The notes under the pieces were generated by a model. That model was not told the origin of the DNA and ran no database searches. It was given only the letters and a program-made list of their open reading frames with translations. The position numbers and the translations under genes are program-made. From Candidatus Tayloriibacteriota bacterium (lineage in GTDB: Bacteria > Patescibacteriota > Minisyncoccia > Phycocordibacterales > PALSA-1337), in the NCBI GenBank assembly GCA_943350765.1, contig CALRAJ010000001.1:96689-160688 (forward strand): 64,000 nt of DNA, given 5' to 3'. Below, piece by piece: positions 9,351 to 46,882 of the stretch; within the stretch, counting starts at the first letter, position 1; every line of letters begins with the position of its first letter.

Positions 9351-9357
9351 TAATTTG

Positions 9358-9386
9358 ACAAAATAACCCATAGGGTGTATAATAGT
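9358..9386 (+). promoter_or_regulatory. Near-consensus sigma70 promoter
   Basis: TTGACA, 17 nt, TATAAT (ttgacaaaataacccatagggtgtataat), about 290 nt upstream of the DEAD-box helicase start. Confidence 0.6.
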
Positions 9387-9529
9387 CTATGTAACTGAAT
9401 CTCATCGTTTTTTGTGTTTGGGGATAACTCTCTAAACCCCTGAAGTCATAAGGCTTTTAAGAACTTTTGAGACAACCTAGTCACTTTTTTATTATAAAGA
9501 CTGGAGGGTTATATTGATCTCGAAACAAA

Positions 9530-9650
9530 AATTCTTACTTGGCACATCTTTTAAAAGGCACGAATATTTTTCTGGTGAAAAATTTCTCAAGTCTCGGCTA
9601 CCCGCCTTGCGAAGTCCTTTTAAAAGATACGCCTACGACGAATTTTTGTT
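9530..9650 (-). mobile_element. Degenerate copy (E) of the MITE-like repeat family, located in the DEAD-box helicase 5' leader
   Basis: Shares cttggcacatctttt, ctcggctacccgcc and aaaagatacgcctacgacg with copies at 12912, 20237, 24183 and 28448. Confidence 0.5.
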
Positions 9651-9680
9651 TCTTCGAAAGAGGGATTTTTTAAAAGAATT

Positions 9681-12279: not shown

Positions 12280-12300
12280 TAGATAAAATTAGGTAAAATA

Positions 12301-12339
12301 GCTTCAAAGGCTCAACGGGCGCCGTTGAGCCTTTGAAGC
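12301..12339. repeat. REP-like perfect palindrome (family F1 variant)
   Basis: gcttcaaaggctcaacgg-gcgc-ccgttgagcctttgaagc. Confidence 0.8.
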
Positions 12340-12349
12340 TTGTGAGGTC

Positions 12350-12387
12350 ATACCCCACGAAAATCTACTGATTTTCGTGGGGTATTG
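12350..12387. repeat. Hairpin (ataccccacgaaaatc / gattttcgtggggtat)
   Basis: Perfect 16-bp stem lying between two REP-like palindromes. Confidence 0.6.
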
Positions 12388-12416
12388 TAATCGTATTAAA
12401 TGGCTCATCAAAGCCG

Positions 12417-12454
12417 TTTGAACGGCTCAACAGGGCTGTTGAGCCGTTCAAACT
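12417..12454. repeat. REP-like perfect palindrome (family F1)
   Basis: gtttgaacggctcaacag-ggc-tgttgagccgttcaaac; related copies at 38550 and 47107. Confidence 0.8.
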
Positions 12455-12461
12455 AATGTGT

Positions 12462-12869
12462 CTATCTATTATTCTCAGGTCTTATTTGTATCGATTGAGC
12501 ATTCATACTACCGTCAGGATTTTTGCTACCTGTGATTGTTACTTGCGTACCAGTAATAATGTCATTTAGTGACCCTACACTACTCTTTTGTATAGTGGTA
12601 CTCGAGTTTAGAAATACAATATTTGAGCCACCTTCGCGTAGCTTTACCGTAACACTCTGAGCATCTTTTGTGATAATTTCACCTGTAATAAACGCCCCAC
12701 CTTGTCGAACGGCACGATTGCCACCATTTAAATTTGCTCTAAATTGCCCTGATCCAGCCTGTGTCTGTGTATTTTTTGATGAACCATACTTTATACCAGC
12801 ATAAAAAGCTATCCCAGCTACAATTATCACTACAACAACAATTTTTATAATATTTTCTTTATTTTTCAT
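12462..12869 (-). CDS. Hypothetical secreted/membrane-anchored protein
   Basis: 135 aa with an N-terminal TM. Confidence 0.5.
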   Translation of the reverse strand: MKNKENIIKIVVVVIIVAGIAFYAGIKYGSSKNTQTQAGSGQFRANLNGGNRAVRQGGAFITGEIITKDAQSVTVKLREGGSNIVFLNSSTTIQKSSVGSLNDIITGTQVTITGSKNPDGSMNAQSIQIRPENNR

Positions 12870-28006: not shown

Positions 28007-28145
28007 GGAAGGCCCAGCGGGAGATCTTACGAGCATAATTATCTCCAAGGCAGAGCATGTCGCACAATATATCTTTTAGACATATATAGTAGTATCAAGC
28101 CTGAAGTGTTTTGTGTGAACATTATGACGACTCGAATGTACATAC

Positions 28146-28391
28146 CTACACAACCTTAGACCAGACCAATCGTATAAAAAGATTCCAAAGATAACTCACA
28201 GGTCTAGCTAGATAGTTTTCATACACTCCTACCACAAGATCCTTCATATAGACTAGATTTTTATGTACTGTGGGCGAATCAATAATCTTTTGTAAATCAA
28301 AACCAAAATAACCCAAGACTATCAATGCTACGACGATTATGATGATTAGCTTAATAAAACCAGCCTCTCGAACCTTATGTGTGTGTACCAT
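28146..28391 (-). CDS. Hypothetical small membrane protein
   Basis: 81 aa with one TM. Confidence 0.35.
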   Translation of the reverse strand: MVHTHKVREAGFIKLIIIIVVALIVLGYFGFDLQKIIDSPTVHKNLVYMKDLVVGVYENYLARPVSYLWNLFIRLVWSKVV

Positions 28392-28447
28392 ATCACCTAA
28401 TAATACTAAATCTAGCTCAAAATACTAGCCTACACAGCAAATTACTA

Positions 28448-28734
28448 AATGCGTTGAAGGCATATCTTTTAAATGGACTTCGCAGGTCGACGAGCGAAGG
28501 CGAGGAAGATACTGTAGCTACCAAGATACATGTGCATGGGTAGCCCCGCCATTCGTGAGTATACTACGGCGTGGCACGCGAGATTTCAGGAAAAAATTAC
28601 CAAATTTTTATCCGTACCCCGTCTACAGGTGTCTATCCATAACTGATAGACCTTTAAAAGATATGCCAAGAAAGGTCGATCGTTTGTGATCGACACCTGT
28701 AGACGGTATTTTGTAATTTGGGGTATTTATAAAA
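28448..28734 (+). mobile_element. MITE-like repeat copy D (long variant with internal insertion)
   Basis: The right TIR tattttgtaatttgggg is identical to copy A and the left end is degenerate. Shares cgcgagatttcaggaaaaa...ttatccgtacc with copy B. Confidence 0.65.
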
Positions 28735-41313: not shown

Positions 41314-41359
41314 AAAAACAGCCGAATGATTTTTACATAAAATCATTCGGCTGTTTTTT
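41314..41359. terminator. Bidirectional Rho-independent terminator between typA and truB
   Basis: aaaaaacagccgaatgatttt-tacat-aaaatcattcggctgtttttt. Confidence 0.7.
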
Positions 41360-42131
41360 ATCTAAAATTTAAAACTTTCGAAATATCGTATTCCCCCACT
41401 TTTGTTCTCAAAATACTCAGTGCGAGTGCTGGTACTCCAAGCTTTTTACCTAGCTCATTTGCAATAGATCTGATATACACACCACTTCCACAGACTACTT
41501 TTATTTTTATAACAGGAAGTGTCTTTTGTGGATATTTTAGTTTAAAAAAGCTCTTCCATTTTTCAATTATTTCTGCCTGGCGAAAATCACCCGTAACTAG
41601 AGAAATATTTTTAAAGATTCGTGTCTCAAGTGAGAGTAAAGATATTTGTTCTATAGATATTATTTCTATACCGTAAACCTCGACTTCCCTGCTTGGAGTA
41701 TCCTCCTCCAGTAGAGTCTCACTTTTTGCGTATTCAAAAAGGGCCTTACCATGTAGGGTTTTTGAGGAATAGGGTGGGTATTTTTGTGCATATCTACCGA
41801 CAAATGACGCGAGGTGTGATTCTATGAGAGCATATTTTGACACACTAGTTGAAACAGGCTCAGGCAAAATACCCACAACTTTACCTAAAATATCGTATGT
41901 ATCTGTTCCCACTCCCAAAAGCACTTCGCATTCATACTCTTTATCCAGTCCAAGGTACTTCTCACGCTCCTTATTCTCCTCATCCACAAGCACGAGCATT
42001 AAACCCTCTGCCATGGGATCCAGCCTTCCTGCGTATGACAAAACTGTGTTTTTGTATTCGGGCTTTGCCAGTCGTAGTTCGTCCAAGCATTGCAAAGGTG
42101 TTTCCCCTATCTTTTTATATAAGCAAAGCAT
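41358..42131 (-). CDS. truB: tRNA pseudouridine(55) synthase
   Basis: GRLDPMAEGLMLVL (catalytic Asp motif). Confidence 0.85.
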   Translation of the reverse strand: MLCLYKKIGETPLQCLDELRLAKPEYKNTVLSYAGRLDPMAEGLMLVLVDEENKEREKYLGLDKEYECEVLLGVGTDTYDILGKVVGILPEPVSTSVSKYALIESHLASFVGRYAQKYPPYSSKTLHGKALFEYAKSETLLEEDTPSREVEVYGIEIISIEQISLLSLETRIFKNISLVTGDFRQAEIIEKWKSFFKLKYPQKTLPVIKIKVVCGSGVYIRSIANELGKKLGVPALALSILRTKVGEYDISKVLNFR

Positions 42132-42731
42132 TGATTATATTATATTTTATTTTTGTTACTGAGACTTTTGATAATGATTTAAATAAAAAACTTCGTGCAA
42201 AACAACCTCACGAAGCATAGAACTTATGATTGGTTTCCCTCACAAACAATACAGGTATAATTATAATACCCCATTGATTCAGATTAGCGAGACTCACCGC
42301 TGTTAGCCAGACCCGCCTTCCCATTTAAGCCTTCAACACACCTGTGTGCGTAGCGTATTTATTCAAGAATACTCGGCTAGGATTATCTGGCGCATTGTTG
42401 AGTCCCCGTTGTTTGTTTTCGGCGTTTTGGTATAAGGAGCCGTCTCATAAACTACTACCCCAGTTGTCCTGCAAGGGTAGGAGCTTCGCTTGATTACCTG
42501 CGTAAAAAAGCTCAACTCTGAGACAAGGAAGTTTGTGAGTAGAGGGATAATGTTGAGTCTTGCAGACCCTTTCACCGAAGAACAAAGTCTCTATTTTCCC
42601 CACATGCTCTCCCTTTATTCAAGGTACGCCAACCTCAAGTTCTAAGGACAGATGATAGCACCCCACTGACTAAATGTCAAGATTTTTATCCATAACTCTT
42701 TTTCACTAAGTTATGTTATACTATCTGTACA

Positions 42732-43406
42732 ATGTTGATAGAATTTTTTTTTGATAAAATCGCCATTTTTTTAAATAGTACATCAGTTATCAATATACTT
42801 TTTCTGATTACACTTATTATCAATGGTATTGTTTTTATAGTCGTACTTTATCACTGGTTTACATATCGCCCAAGTACTGCGGTCGTACTTGTACAGAATG
42901 AGCAGATACTGAGAGTTTACCGAAAACACTGGTTTAGATTTTTTACTGATGTTTTGATCATAGTCGCTCTTATTTTTATACCACTTACTCTTTCCTTACT
43001 ACCAAGTGATCAGATGCAGTGGTTTAAAAGTATCACTCCATTCCTAAATGCCCTCTATAGCTCATGGCTAGTCTTTTTACTATTTGGTTTTTTGATAATG
43101 GCAACAAATTATTTTCTCGATATCTGGGTTTTGACCAACAAACGTCTGGTAGATGTGGATCAAAGGGGGTTATTTAAAAGAGACATCTCTGAAATCCGGC
43201 TGGAAAAGATTGAGGATATAAACATCAAAATATTTGGCATCATTGATACTTTTCTAGGGATAGGTACTGTAGAAATAGAGTCTGCAGGAGCAGTAAAGGA
43301 GTTTTCTCTGAAAAATATCGCACATCCAGAACAAGCCCGAGCTGAGATAAGTGCAACAGCAAGTAGAAAGCTCGATGAGGTACAAGAAGTAAAAATCGTC
43401 GTATAA
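42732..43406 (+). CDS. Bacterial PH-domain membrane protein (bPH_2/YdbS-YdbT family)
   Basis: 3 TM helices followed by DIWVLTNKRLVDVDQRGLFKRDISEIRLEKIEDI...GIGTVEIES. Confidence 0.7.
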   Translation: MLIEFFFDKIAIFLNSTSVINILFLITLIINGIVFIVVLYHWFTYRPSTAVVLVQNEQILRVYRKHWFRFFTDVLIIVALIFIPLTLSLLPSDQMQWFKSITPFLNALYSSWLVFLLFGFLIMATNYFLDIWVLTNKRLVDVDQRGLFKRDISEIRLEKIEDINIKIFGIIDTFLGIGTVEIESAGAVKEFSLKNIAHPEQARAEISATASRKLDEVQEVKIVV

Positions 43407-44434: not shown

Positions 44435-45052
44435 TTAATCGAAACGATTCTCCCCAAATCTTACAGGCCAACAAAGACTACTGTCATCGAGACTTGGGAC
44501 AACCTGACCTATTCCCTGTTCCCGAAGACTAGCCTTTGACATAATCTCAAGCTGACCTGCGACCTGAAACACATTGTGTCCCCAGACACTAAATTCAAGT
44601 ACTGGTAAGCCTTCGGCCTCATCTTTTGGTAAGGGTAATACATCAAACACCCTAGTACAGAAAACATCTCCGTGTTTTCTAACTCTGCAAAGCAACCCTC
44701 TGTGACTGCCACAATGTGTAATAGGGTTACTTACCGAGGTCTCCAGGACTTGATCGGATAATGGCCAGATAGTGGGTACAGGTATCGGCCAGCAGGGCGC
44801 GAGGCTGTCAACACCTTCAATGAAGTGATTTCCTGTCCGACTAGACCAGTCCTTTACTGCCTTCGTGAGACCGCTAAGCGCAGTAAATATATTCAAATCA
44901 CGCGACTCAGCAACAACCAAGACAGAGTCGTCGTATTTCGCCACTGGTCCATTCCAGAGAACTGCTCGTAGCACTTTGCCATCTGGAGTACTGTTTTGTG
45001 CGGATCGGGTAAAACGCCCGCGGTGGACACTGAGGGATATGATGTGATTCAT
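44435..45052 (-). CDS. Hypothetical protein (moderately GC-elevated)
   Basis: 205 aa; His/Cys-containing motifs (HCGSHRGLLCRV) with no confident family. Confidence 0.4.
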   Translation of the reverse strand: MNHIISLSVHRGRFTRSAQNSTPDGKVLRAVLWNGPVAKYDDSVLVVAESRDLNIFTALSGLTKAVKDWSSRTGNHFIEGVDSLAPCWPIPVPTIWPLSDQVLETSVSNPITHCGSHRGLLCRVRKHGDVFCTRVFDVLPLPKDEAEGLPVLEFSVWGHNVFQVAGQLEIMSKASLREQGIGQVVPSLDDSSLCWPVRFGENRFD

Positions 45053-45152: not shown

Positions 45153-45710
45153 TCATCGTTTGGTTAGAAAATAGTCTTCTTAAACAATAGCAAAAAGTAA
45201 TCCCCGAGAGAGGGTATTGGTTTTCTTGCTAGTATTTAAAATTGAAATACTTTTAATCATTGTTCCAATCATACCAGTAATGTAAAATAAATACAATGGG
45301 CTAGCAAAGATTGCTCTTACAGTAAGACTTTTTACTTCCAACAATGTTTCGTTTGGTGGATTTTACAGGAACTCTTCCTCTACGAGGACAGTATCCCGAT
45401 TGGATTTTTTTTACGCCAGTAGGCTTGAAAAAGTACTCAATCGGGCTTCGAGTCCTGTACGGAAGCGTCCCCACGCTTCCTACAGTCCAGCAAAAAATCC
45501 ACCAAAGGTGGATTTGTTTGTGGACCCTACAGGAATCTCTCCCTCGAATAATCCCATGCCGTCGCATGGAATTTTTCTGGGCACCGGATTCGCGACAAGC
45601 CCTACTGCGCTCGTAAACCGCGAATCCGTTCGAGTCCTGACGCAAAGCTCTGCTTTGCTTAGGGTCCACAAATTTAAAAACCACTTTATAAAAAGTGGTT
45701 TTTAAATTTG

Positions 45711-45783
45711 TGGACCCTACAGGACTCGAACCTGCCACCCCCTCATTGCAAATGAGGTGCTCTACCAGATGAGCTAAGGGCCC
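45711..45783 (-). tRNA. tRNA-Cys (GCA)
   Basis: Minus-strand sequence GGGCCCTTAGCTCATCTGGTAGAGCACCTCATTTGCAATGAGGGGGTGGCAGGTTCGAGTCCTGTAGGGTCCA. It has a 7-bp acceptor stem, the D-loop AGCTCATCTGGTAGAGC, anticodon loop TTGCAAT and T-loop GGTTCGAGTCC. No encoded CCA. Confidence 0.85.
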
Positions 45784-45819
45784 GTACTATTGACAGTACA
45801 GCCTCTAAAACTGCCTAGA

Positions 45820-45855
45820 TACTATAGCGAATGTTAGTACAGAAATCAAGTCATG
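45820..45855 (-). promoter_or_regulatory. Putative promoter of tRNA-Cys
   Basis: On the minus strand: TTGATT, 17 nt, TATAGT, about 35 nt upstream of the tRNA 5' end. Confidence 0.4.
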
Positions 45856-45913
45856 TCGTTTCCGCATGCGCCATACATACAATACCTTTGACTTTTTATA
45901 GATATTTATGAGA

Positions 45914-46882
45914 TTAAATTTTACCCCTCGCCAATTCAAGCGTATGCACTAAAAATTCAGGCATACTACTCCCCACTGCTGATAAAGAAAGAGGAAAAAG
46001 TGACTCATCGGTGAGGCCTGGGAGTGTATTGACCTCTAGTATATATACCCCCCTTTTTGGATGCACAATAAAATCAGATCTTGAATAGTGCCGTAAGCCC
46101 AAAGCCTTGTGGACAGTGACTGATGCGTCCTGAATCTTTTTTATTTCATCTTTGGTAAAGTTGCCAGGGCAGATTTCTTTGCTCTTGCCACTGTATTTTG
46201 CTTCATAGTCAAAAATGCCGGAGGCGCTACCATGTATAATCTCGACTGGTAAAAGTGAGTAGAATGCTTCCCCACGGAAACCTTCGATCACTCCACAGGT
46301 CACTTCCCTACCAGAAATATATTCCTCTACAAGTACTTCACTATCGTATTTGAAAGCTAGCACTAGACCTTGCTCGATTTCGGCAATATTATGAACAATT
46401 GAGACACCGCTAGATGAGCCAGCTCGTACTGGCTTTACCACAGCAGGCATAGGAAAAGTTTTAAATAAATCAACTATATCCGCATGAGTATATTCGTCTT
46501 TTTTTATTATCTTATGATGTGGCGTTTTAATACCGATATCAGAAAATATCTTTTTTGACAGGGCTTTATTCATTCCAAGAGCCGACGCAAGATAGCCTGA
46601 ACCAGTGTAAGGTATTCCGATAGTATCTAGGAGGTGCTGGACTTTTCCGTCCTCACCATATTCGCCGTGCAAAGCATTAAAAATTACATCAAAATTGTTT
46701 ATCATCTCTGCTGGCTTATAGGGCATGCCACCTTTGTGCCATTCGCCAGTTTTGGAAATAAAAATATCATGAACATCATATTTGTTTGATAAATGCTTCA
46801 AAACAGACGCACCTGTTTTAAGCGACACCTCGTATTCACTTGATGGTCCACCTCGTATTACTCCTACTCGTATTTTTGACAT
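45914..46882 (-). CDS. ddl: D-alanine--D-alanine ligase
   Basis: ATP-grasp fold; RVGVIRGGPSSEYEVSLKTGASV N-terminus, and C-terminal EVNTLPGLT. Confidence 0.9.
   Translation of the reverse strand: MSKIRVGVIRGGPSSEYEVSLKTGASVLKHLSNKYDVHDIFISKTGEWHKGGMPYKPAEMINNFDVIFNALHGEYGEDGKVQHLLDTIGIPYTGSGYLASALGMNKALSKKIFSDIGIKTPHHKIIKKDEYTHADIVDLFKTFPMPAVVKPVRAGSSSGVSIVHNIAEIEQGLVLAFKYDSEVLVEEYISGREVTCGVIEGFRGEAFYSLLPVEIIHGSASGIFDYEAKYSGKSKEICPGNFTKDEIKKIQDASVTVHKALGLRHYSRSDFIVHPKRGVYILEVNTLPGLTDESLFPLSLSAVGSSMPEFLVHTLELARGKI

Follow-up and report, generated by a model that had tools for sequence, protein, structure and literature searches.

Background

The described RNAs that come closest to the element studied here are RNase P RNA of type A (RF00010), tmRNA (SsrA), the toxin transcripts of hok/Sok and aapA1/IsoA1, RNAIII of Staphylococcus aureus, and the large RNAs OLE, ROOL and GOLLD. 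The element is a candidate RNA gene on the minus strand of the 600 nucleotides (nt), positions 42132-42731, that separate the gene truB from a gene for a bPH_2-domain membrane protein in a 64-kb stretch of the genome of Candidatus Tayloriibacteriota bacterium, a member of the Patescibacteria; this whole stretch is called the window in what follows. The original prediction, made from the letters alone, described the gap as rich in hairpins and empty of genes, and proposed a structured RNA: RNase P RNA, tmRNA, or a novel RNA of the Candidate Phyla Radiation (CPR).

The likeness to RNase P RNA lies in a length of about 400 nt, a helix that joins the 5' and 3' ends, and a stand-alone gene with promoter and terminator; in addition, an 11-nt segment of the candidate, GGUGAAAGGGU, matches CR-II / J11-12 of E. 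coli M1 RNA, where CR stands for conserved region. Unlike RNase P RNA, the candidate lacks P4, CR-I, CR-V, CR-III and CR-IV, has its motifs in the wrong order, and is matched by no covariance model. With tmRNA it has in common a similar size, an ACCA near its 3' part, and a frame, GCC GAA AAC AAA..., that loosely recalls the start of a tag; it differs in having no tRNA-like domain, no T-loop, no G3:U70 acceptor stem and no call from ARAGORN or Rfam, and its ACCA sits inside the closing-helix region instead of at the 3' end.

The transcripts of hok/Sok and aapA1/IsoA1 are likewise folded over several hundred nt, with ends locked by long-range pairing, a terminator hairpin and a small hydrophobic open reading frame (ORF) near the 3' end, and like the candidate they are orphan and intergenic. 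The candidate departs from them by a 5' untranslated part of 320 nt, an ORF that has neither family match nor coding signal, an antisense promoter that does not rise above chance, and a host that largely does without initiation dependent on Shine-Dalgarno (SD) motifs. RNAIII, about 450-500 nt long, likewise stands alone and combines many hairpins with long-range pairing of its ends, a motif repeated in loops and an embedded small ORF. The candidate resembles it in architecture only: there is no sequence or structural homology, and the phylum is another one. As for OLE, ROOL and GOLLD, they too are large non-coding RNAs of uncultured lineages with no assigned biochemical role, but these families are defined by extensive covariation over many genomes, whereas the candidate has no homologue or Rfam match.

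Results

A probable transcription unit in the gap

On sequence, the gap is best described as holding the gene of an orphan RNA, about 430-460 nt long and transcribed on its own. The features that carry this description all lie on one strand:

42652..42680, minus strand: sigma-70-type promoter, TTGACA-17-TGcTATCAT, matching the consensus at 11 of 12 positions and carrying the extended -10 TG
42218..42644, minus strand: candidate RNA core, 427 nt, bounded by the closing helix
42629..42644, minus strand: 5' strand of the closing helix P1, UAGAACUUGAGGUUGG, pair probability 0.99
42218..42233, minus strand: 3' strand of P1, CCAAUCAUAAGUUCUA, pairing with 42644-42629
42181..42216, minus strand: intrinsic terminator, GCUUCGUG-loop-CACGAAGU, then UUUUUUAUUU; a hairpin of -9.7 kcal/mol followed by U6

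The promoter consists of a -35 box TTGACA (42680-42675), a 17-nt spacer, the TG (42660-42659) and a -10 box TATCAT (42657-42652), and it predicts a transcription start at about 42643-42646 on the minus strand. Sites that match at least 11 of the 12 sigma-70 consensus positions are rare: the 128 kb of strand in the window hold five, against 2.4 in shuffles. All five are intergenic, and since the other four point in the right orientation into real genes, csp among them, the organism appears to use canonical sigma-70 promoters. No start codon is found 6-9 nt past the candidate promoter, unlike the situation in many leaderless-looking genes of this genome.

The helix P1 pairs the first 16 nt, counted from 42644, with positions 42233-42218, and was also recovered as inverted repeat I1. 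Among 5000 shuffles, 6 reach its duplex energy of -23.6 kcal/mol, and among 5000 genomic segment pairs taken at the same spacing, 18 do, a chance probability of about 0.001-0.004 against these two nulls. On the plus strand the same helix would reach only -17.4 kcal/mol, because two G-U pairs turn into C-A. The terminator starts two nt past the closing helix; hairpins followed by U6 occur 20 times in the 128 kb of strand, or about once per 6.4 kb, mostly at gene ends. Because the plus strand has no U-run, the terminator acts in one direction.

The chance probabilities of the three independent features are about 0.003, 0.003 and 0.009, and since they stand in the correct order on a single strand, a real transcription unit of about 460 nt is likely. 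The composition of the core sets it apart as well: its GC content of 0.443 exceeds that of the flanks (0.24 and 0.33) and that of ordinary spacers (0.21-0.29), which argues against old neutral DNA. On the minus strand, G exceeds C. A separate promoter, an intrinsic terminator and the lack of a translated ORF, as in small RNA genes generally, are thus predicted from the sequence.

That the gap is a non-coding RNA gene in some general sense is a reasonable idea, and the observation behind it is real. The more specific reading, in which a stand-alone, species-restricted gene on the minus strand encodes an orphan small RNA acting in trans, we hold to be about evenly poised. Its support is the architecture of a transcription unit, not conservation of structure.

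Some observations on initiation in the rest of the window may be recorded here. Only 2 of its 42 genes have an SD-like motif upstream, and in many genes a TATAAT-like box ends 6-9 nt before the ATG, a pattern that points to leaderless or SD-independent starts as the predominant mode in this genome. At 9355-9383, a sigma-70 promoter agrees with the consensus at every position (12/12), and the next ORF (9681) begins only about 300 nt further downstream; the region 9355-9680, in which Rfam has nothing at gathering score, might represent a long leader or a further small transcript.

Coding potential

The original prediction had stated that no ORF exceeds 70 amino acids (aa) and that the one of this length has no coding features, and both statements stand. 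The longest ORF, with a GTG start, has 70 aa (42363-42575, minus strand). A codon log-odds score was trained on the long ORFs of the window: coding windows score 0.28+-0.11, and wrong, non-coding frames, -0.12+-0.11. The six frames of the region range from -0.13 to +0.05, without coding-like usage, and Pfam finds no family at E<=1 in any of the six frames of the gap.

Predicted fold and repeated motifs

The minimum free energy (MFE) of the 427-nt core is -129.8 kcal/mol, with a z-score of -2.9 on the minus strand and -3.4 on the plus strand. The following elements are predicted inside the core:

42289..42406, minus strand: most robust internal domain, a 118-nt irregular hairpin with GGGACUCA/UGAGUCUC, GCCAGAU/GUCUGGC and a three-way junction
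42531..42539, minus strand: CUCACAAAC, forming a perfect 9-base-pair long-range helix with GUUUGUGAG (42239-42247); inverted repeat I3
42614..42623, minus strand: motif CUUGAAUAAA, copy 1, in a hairpin loop
42358-42367, minus strand: motif CUUGAAUAAA, copy 2, in a hairpin loop
42274-42282, minus strand: variant CUGAAUCAA of CUUGAAUAAA, single-stranded

The helices of the 118-nt domain have probabilities of 0.8-0.95 and are the same in the alternative fold. Elsewhere the predicted secondary structure is ambiguous: the long-range helix 42539-42531/42247-42239 competes with the MFE pairing, its pair probability is about 0.4, and a fold constrained to contain it comes within 1.4 kcal/mol of the MFE. 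If formed, it would set apart a 5' domain of 89 nt from an inner domain of 283 nt.

The consensus YTGAATMAA, a motif defined post hoc from these same data, has nine matches in the 64-kb window, and three of them are inside the candidate RNA, all on the minus strand. In addition, GACUCAACA occurs twice on the minus strand of the region, as does UGGGGUAKUA; by the null of the self-alignment, a single 10-mer repeat is unremarkable. An internal duplication was considered and rejected, the self-alignment showing short repeats only, no better than those of shuffles. The same fate befell a miniature inverted-repeat transposable element, or any element with terminal inverted repeats: the ends agree at 13 of 16 positions at the DNA level, and there is no target-site duplication. 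The window holds no second copy of the element.

In the mechanism that we propose, the sigma-70 promoter would start the candidate transcript at about 42645, and the pairing of its first 16 nt with the last 16 nt before the terminator would make the 427-nt GC-enriched core one folded unit. Transcription would stop near 42183, about 50 nt ahead of truB, which has a -10 box of its own, and the transcript would have no usable ORF. Such an RNA would presumably work in trans, in a regulatory or scaffold role; the closing helix and the terminator hairpin may shield its ends from exonucleases, and the CUUGAAUAAA loops, two in hairpins and one a single-stranded variant, would be where a protein or a complementary RNA most likely makes contact.

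Flanking genes and synteny

42132-42731 is the exact space between the start codons of two divergent genes, and the limits that the original prediction gave to this 600-nt stretch are exact:

41358-42131, minus strand: truB, Pfam TruB_N, E=5e-25
42732-43406, plus strand: gene of a membrane protein with a bPH_2 domain, Pfam bPH_2, E=5e-7
42132-42180, minus strand: AT-rich spacer outside the RNA, with truB's own -10-like boxes TATAATATAAT just before the ATG

The spacers of this genome had been said to be short, and they are: the median intergenic spacer of the window is about 100 nt. The gap is one of the two longest stretches of the window that have no convincing gene, since several gaps that look large turn out to contain genuine small genes, namely those of a cold-shock protein, of L32 and of a SWIB-like protein. 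PADLOC has no match for the neighbouring genes, and the bPH_2 protein is matched in PHROG only by the generic 'membrane-flanked domain'; a defence-island or phage context was rejected on these results.

Relatives of TruB were drawn from the GTDB genomes and from a large protein collection. They place the organism among the Patescibacteria, its nearest neighbours being metagenome-assembled genomes of Paceibacteria/Minisyncoccia type. Throughout the homologues that are 66-72% identical, the divergent neighbour of truB is hisS, across a conserved spacer:

L017 7384-7461, L018 6535-6612 and L020 9923-10000 (three loci of relatives): hisS-truB spacer, 78 nt, TATTCTAGCAAAAC...TTCACAATC...TTTTTACTGTAGATTA

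One TruB relative has a small membrane-protein gene between hisS and truB. Homologues of the bPH_2 protein, 54-62% identical, have a tRNA-Ala, a DUF5679 gene or a sigma-factor gene upstream. The gaps that correspond to ours are thus occupied in relatives by tRNA-Ala, by small protein genes, or by the 78-nt hisS-truB spacer, and nowhere in the loci fetched from relatives (about 160 kb) is there a comparable GC-rich block free of ORFs. The genome of the window has lost the hisS-truB arrangement, its hisS being outside the 64 kb. Because the relatives have truB beside hisS, and the bPH_2 relatives neighbour other genes, the junction is a species-specific synteny break.

Weighing the RNA gene

Several results weigh against a stand-alone RNA gene. 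Comparison with related genomes, which the original prediction had named as a check, yields nothing: blastn and nhmmer searches of the region against the 160 kb of relatives' loci find no homologue. No relative appears in two metagenome and two viral-contig scans, for which the region was read as a pseudo-protein in two frames and represented by 11 degenerate 24-nt windows, and blastn against phage and plasmid collections returns only short AT-rich chance matches. Since no search found a homologue, there is no covariation or conservation to invoke. The region is 100% identical in six assemblies of the same species and, as all same-species contigs are clonal, they carry no population signal. 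The locus lies at a synteny breakpoint, a place where leftover DNA could accumulate. Finally, the description as hairpin-rich does not hold in a statistical sense, since about 21% of 136 windows of equal length from the same 64 kb reach the MFE z-score of the core, and neither GNRA nor UUCG tetraloops, nor other hallmarks of large structured RNAs, are seen in the predicted fold.

The proposal of a novel structured RNA gene is therefore kept in part: promoter, closing helix, terminator, GC content and lack of coding signal speak for it, but it has no homologues and its thermodynamics are ordinary.

Alternative explanations

A remnant at a breakpoint. The explanation that survives best is that the gap is a non-functional remnant of a rearrangement, that is, recently stranded DNA, from a decayed orphan gene or an acquired fragment, in which the promoter, the terminator and the complementary ends are residual or fortuitous. 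We consider it improbable, yet a serious rival, because of the location at a breakpoint and the lack of conservation. The species-specific junction described above is what one would expect of it, as is a fold of unexceptional stability. A further point in its favour is one frame of the minus strand in 42211-42645, which is interrupted by just 3 stops over 142 codons (UGA twice, UAA once), against 10-11 stops in the other minus frames. Its codon score, 0.05, falls between the coding and non-coding means, but it is also two standard deviations under the coding mean. As UGA does not occur in frame in the flanking genes, nothing points to recoding.

The tests for a pseudogene, namely six-frame Pfam, a word search with the few-stop frame, tblastn with HisRS and codon scoring, were all negative, and a pseudogene was rejected. 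The few-stop frame has no words in common with any of 5.8 billion proteins, and tblastn with HisRS, the product of the ancestral neighbour, detects no remnant of hisS in the gap. A remnant would also leave unexplained, whether by chance or as residue, a 16-base-pair helix placed exactly between a transcription start and a terminator, and a GC content of 44% would be hard to retain in neutral DNA, where spacers have 21-29%, unless the event was recent.

A toxin-like mRNA. The transcript might instead be a dual-function RNA similar to a type I toxin: a folded mRNA for a small hydrophobic peptide, silenced by the pairing of its 5' and 3' ends as in hok and aapA1, with an antisense RNA started at about 42274 on the plus strand as the antitoxin. 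We find this quite unlikely. Two features enter the argument:

42208..42324, minus strand: 38-aa ORF, MGRRVWLTAVSLANLNQWGIIIIPVLFVRETNHKFYAS, the small hydrophobic peptide of this explanation
42239..42267, plus strand: weak candidate antisense promoter, CTCACA-17-TATAAT, 10 of 12

Type I toxin mRNAs are described in terms of long-distance 5'-3' pairing, of stem-loops at the terminator and of start regions that are sequestered (PMC8594479), and the end pairing of the candidate agrees with the first of these. The start codon of the ORF, which is contained in the few-stop frame, lies within the most stable domain, and the TATAAT box of the plus strand faces the start region. An orphan distribution, such as that of the candidate, is typical of type I modules (PMC2887945).

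The peptide itself has basic residues on either side of its hydrophobic stretch and a Kyte-Doolittle maximum of 1.71 over 19 residues. This, however, ranks no higher than the top 12% among 193 small ORFs, and the maximum over 11 residues ranks in the top 4%; its run of isoleucines derives from an AU-rich palindromic hairpin. The codon score of the ORF is -0.006. Pfam, NCBIfam and PADLOC hold nothing for it (E<=10 or E<=0.1), toxin families included, and HMMER against 1.84 billion representatives returns as sole match a spurious tandem-repeat protein, hence no genuine relative. Promoter matches of 10/12 occur in the window at the frequency of chance, 31 observed versus 30.5 in shuffles, and the sole terminator-like site of the plus strand, 42407-42424, is weak. 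The genome rarely uses SD motifs, and its real starts are AU-rich or leaderless; with a start 320 nt inside a GC-rich fold, in a genome where many genes look leaderless, the 38-aa ORF is an unlikely substrate for translation.

A leader of truB. Still less probable, and in our view very unlikely, is a cis-acting leader in which the terminator is a regulated attenuator of read-through into truB, perhaps one that senses tRNA through T-loop-like elements. The RNA is on the same strand as truB, the terminator is about 50 nt upstream of the truB ATG, and the loops GGUGAAAGGG and UUGAAUA may resemble T-loop sequences. On the other side, the -10 boxes of truB itself stand at leaderless distance from the ATG, and the relatives express truB from a 78-nt spacer that has no such leader, both of which disfavour the explanation; in addition, inspection finds no alternative pairing that would serve as antiterminator, and Rfam finds no T-box or riboswitch.

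RNase P RNA and tmRNA. Rfam 15 was searched with the whole window at gathering score, and with segments of 901 and 461 nt at E<=10. In the region it finds no RNase P RNA, tmRNA, 6S, SRP, intron or riboswitch at E<=10, a level at which hits of about 5-20 bits would not show; what the two segments return is limited to chance snoRNA-like matches. The models RF00010, RF00011 and related ones give no match at gathering score or at E<=10, which here means a minimum of about 15-20 bits. The RNase P RNAs of CPR bacteria often score below the Rfam cut-offs yet keep their conserved features, and in 10 of 35 circular CPR genomes rnpB was found only with sub-threshold scores (Lui et al. 2021, PMC8172020). 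Consequently, the conserved regions were tested directly.

The P4 helix of bacterial RNase P RNA is formed by CR-I (GAGGAAAGUCCGGGC) and CR-V (ACAGAAnnnGGCUUA). For CR-I, searched as GAGGAAAGTCCGGGC, the entire window has zero matches with up to 3 mismatches, and for CR-V, searched as ACAGAAnnnGGCTTA, the region has none with up to 2. The best CR-I and CR-V matches of the region carry 3-5 mismatches, and 406-494 of 500 shuffles do as well; CR-III likewise does no better than chance (492 of 500 shuffles), and the CR-IV match is no better than those of shuffles. The original prediction had itself failed to place P4 or a T-loop. It had also pointed to a segment reminiscent of the P10.1/P11 region, GGTGAAAGGGT, which is indeed present on the minus strand at 42576-42566. 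This segment belongs to the only conserved region that exceeds chance:

42565..42578, minus strand: CR-II-like UCGGUGAAAGGGUC, 3 mismatches to AGGGTGAAAGGGTG; equalled in 17 of 500 shuffles

The CR-II-like motif forms the 3' strand of a plain hairpin in one near-optimal fold, and lies about 75 nt from the 5' end; since it comes before every possible P4 strand, the order is wrong. The segment located 5' of the P1 3' strand is GUAUUGUUUGUGAGGGAAA, with no ACAGAA...GGCUUA and no partner after an A-rich J3/4. The terminal helix P1 is present but is not specific to RNase P RNA. Since the defining feature, the catalytic core of P4, CR-I and CR-V, is missing from the region, RNase P RNA was rejected.

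The case for tmRNA ends in the same way. ARAGORN reports no tmRNA or tRNA on either strand of the region, permuted forms included, there is no T-loop and Rfam is silent; lacking a tRNA-like domain, tmRNA was rejected. The segment that had been proposed as a tRNA-like 3' end, GTGAGGGAAACCA, is present at 42243-42231, but GUGAGGGAAACCA is not a 3' end: the RNA runs on through the P1 3' strand into the terminator. The tag-like frame AENKQRGLNN...GVLKA* has 32 codons, which is too long and has little meaning without a tRNA-like domain.

That the gap encodes an RNase P RNA or tmRNA too diverged for Rfam and ARAGORN to detect is barely credible: the length of about 430 nt, the P1-like closing helix, the CR-II-like motif and the precedent of sub-threshold CPR scores would suit the former, but the four other conserved regions are at chance, the order is wrong and UGUUUGUGAGGGAAA stands beside the P1 3' strand where ACAGAA..GGCUUA belongs, while the latter would also need an acceptor stem beginning at the 5' end, and there is none.

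Other stretches of the window

Downstream of tRNA-Ala(UGC), at 45710-45783 on the minus strand, are three direct copies of its 3' end (window 45353-45783), 21 nt long, 100%, 95% and 71% identical and 164-190 nt apart. The same interval has inverted T-arm fragments and a perfect 28-base-pair palindrome that overlaps the 3' end of the tRNA, and it looks like the attachment-site debris of integrative elements or an array of tRNA-fragment repeats. In other assemblies of the species the sequence breaks off at 45036 or 45681, and 45500-45927 has an MFE z-score of -12.9.

The interval 12290-12465, within a 182-nt spacer that separates convergent genes (z about -11), contains three perfect palindromes of 16-19 base pairs with loops of 2-4 nt; two of them have the core GGCTCAAC in common, and they could be bidirectional terminators or a small family of palindromic repeats. 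The 720-nt gap 28007-28726 has one ORF, for an 81-aa membrane protein, a z-score of -8.2, and strong inverted repeats at 28619-28637/28688-28706 and 28459-28473/28653-28667. Finally, a 205-aa ORF at 44435-45052 on the minus strand, annotated as a gene in public assemblies, has a GC content of 48%, compared to 40% for the genome, and is rich in Cys, Trp and His; Pfam, PADLOC and PHROG have nothing for it, and it is perhaps an orphan gene, perhaps spurious.

Conclusions

The candidate might be the founding member of an undescribed class of large Patescibacteria RNAs, about 430 nt long and closed at their ends: a structured RNA that displays its CUUGAAUAAA loops to a partner, or else the first dual-function, type-I-toxin-like RNA to be described in the CPR. 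We regard this as unlikely. We know of no report of a dual-function, type-I-toxin-like RNA in the Candidate Phyla Radiation. The paper that describes T1TAdb makes no mention of Patescibacteria (PMC8594479).

For annotation, the consequence is direct: the gap should not be called rnpB or ssrA, and the genuine genes should be sought elsewhere in the genome. As long as it has no homologues, the candidate cannot yet address broader questions. The genomes of CPR bacteria, or Patescibacteria, are small and dense, and their regulatory RNAs are almost uncharted; if it is expressed, an independently transcribed RNA of 430 nt that such a genome has kept would offer a useful way in.

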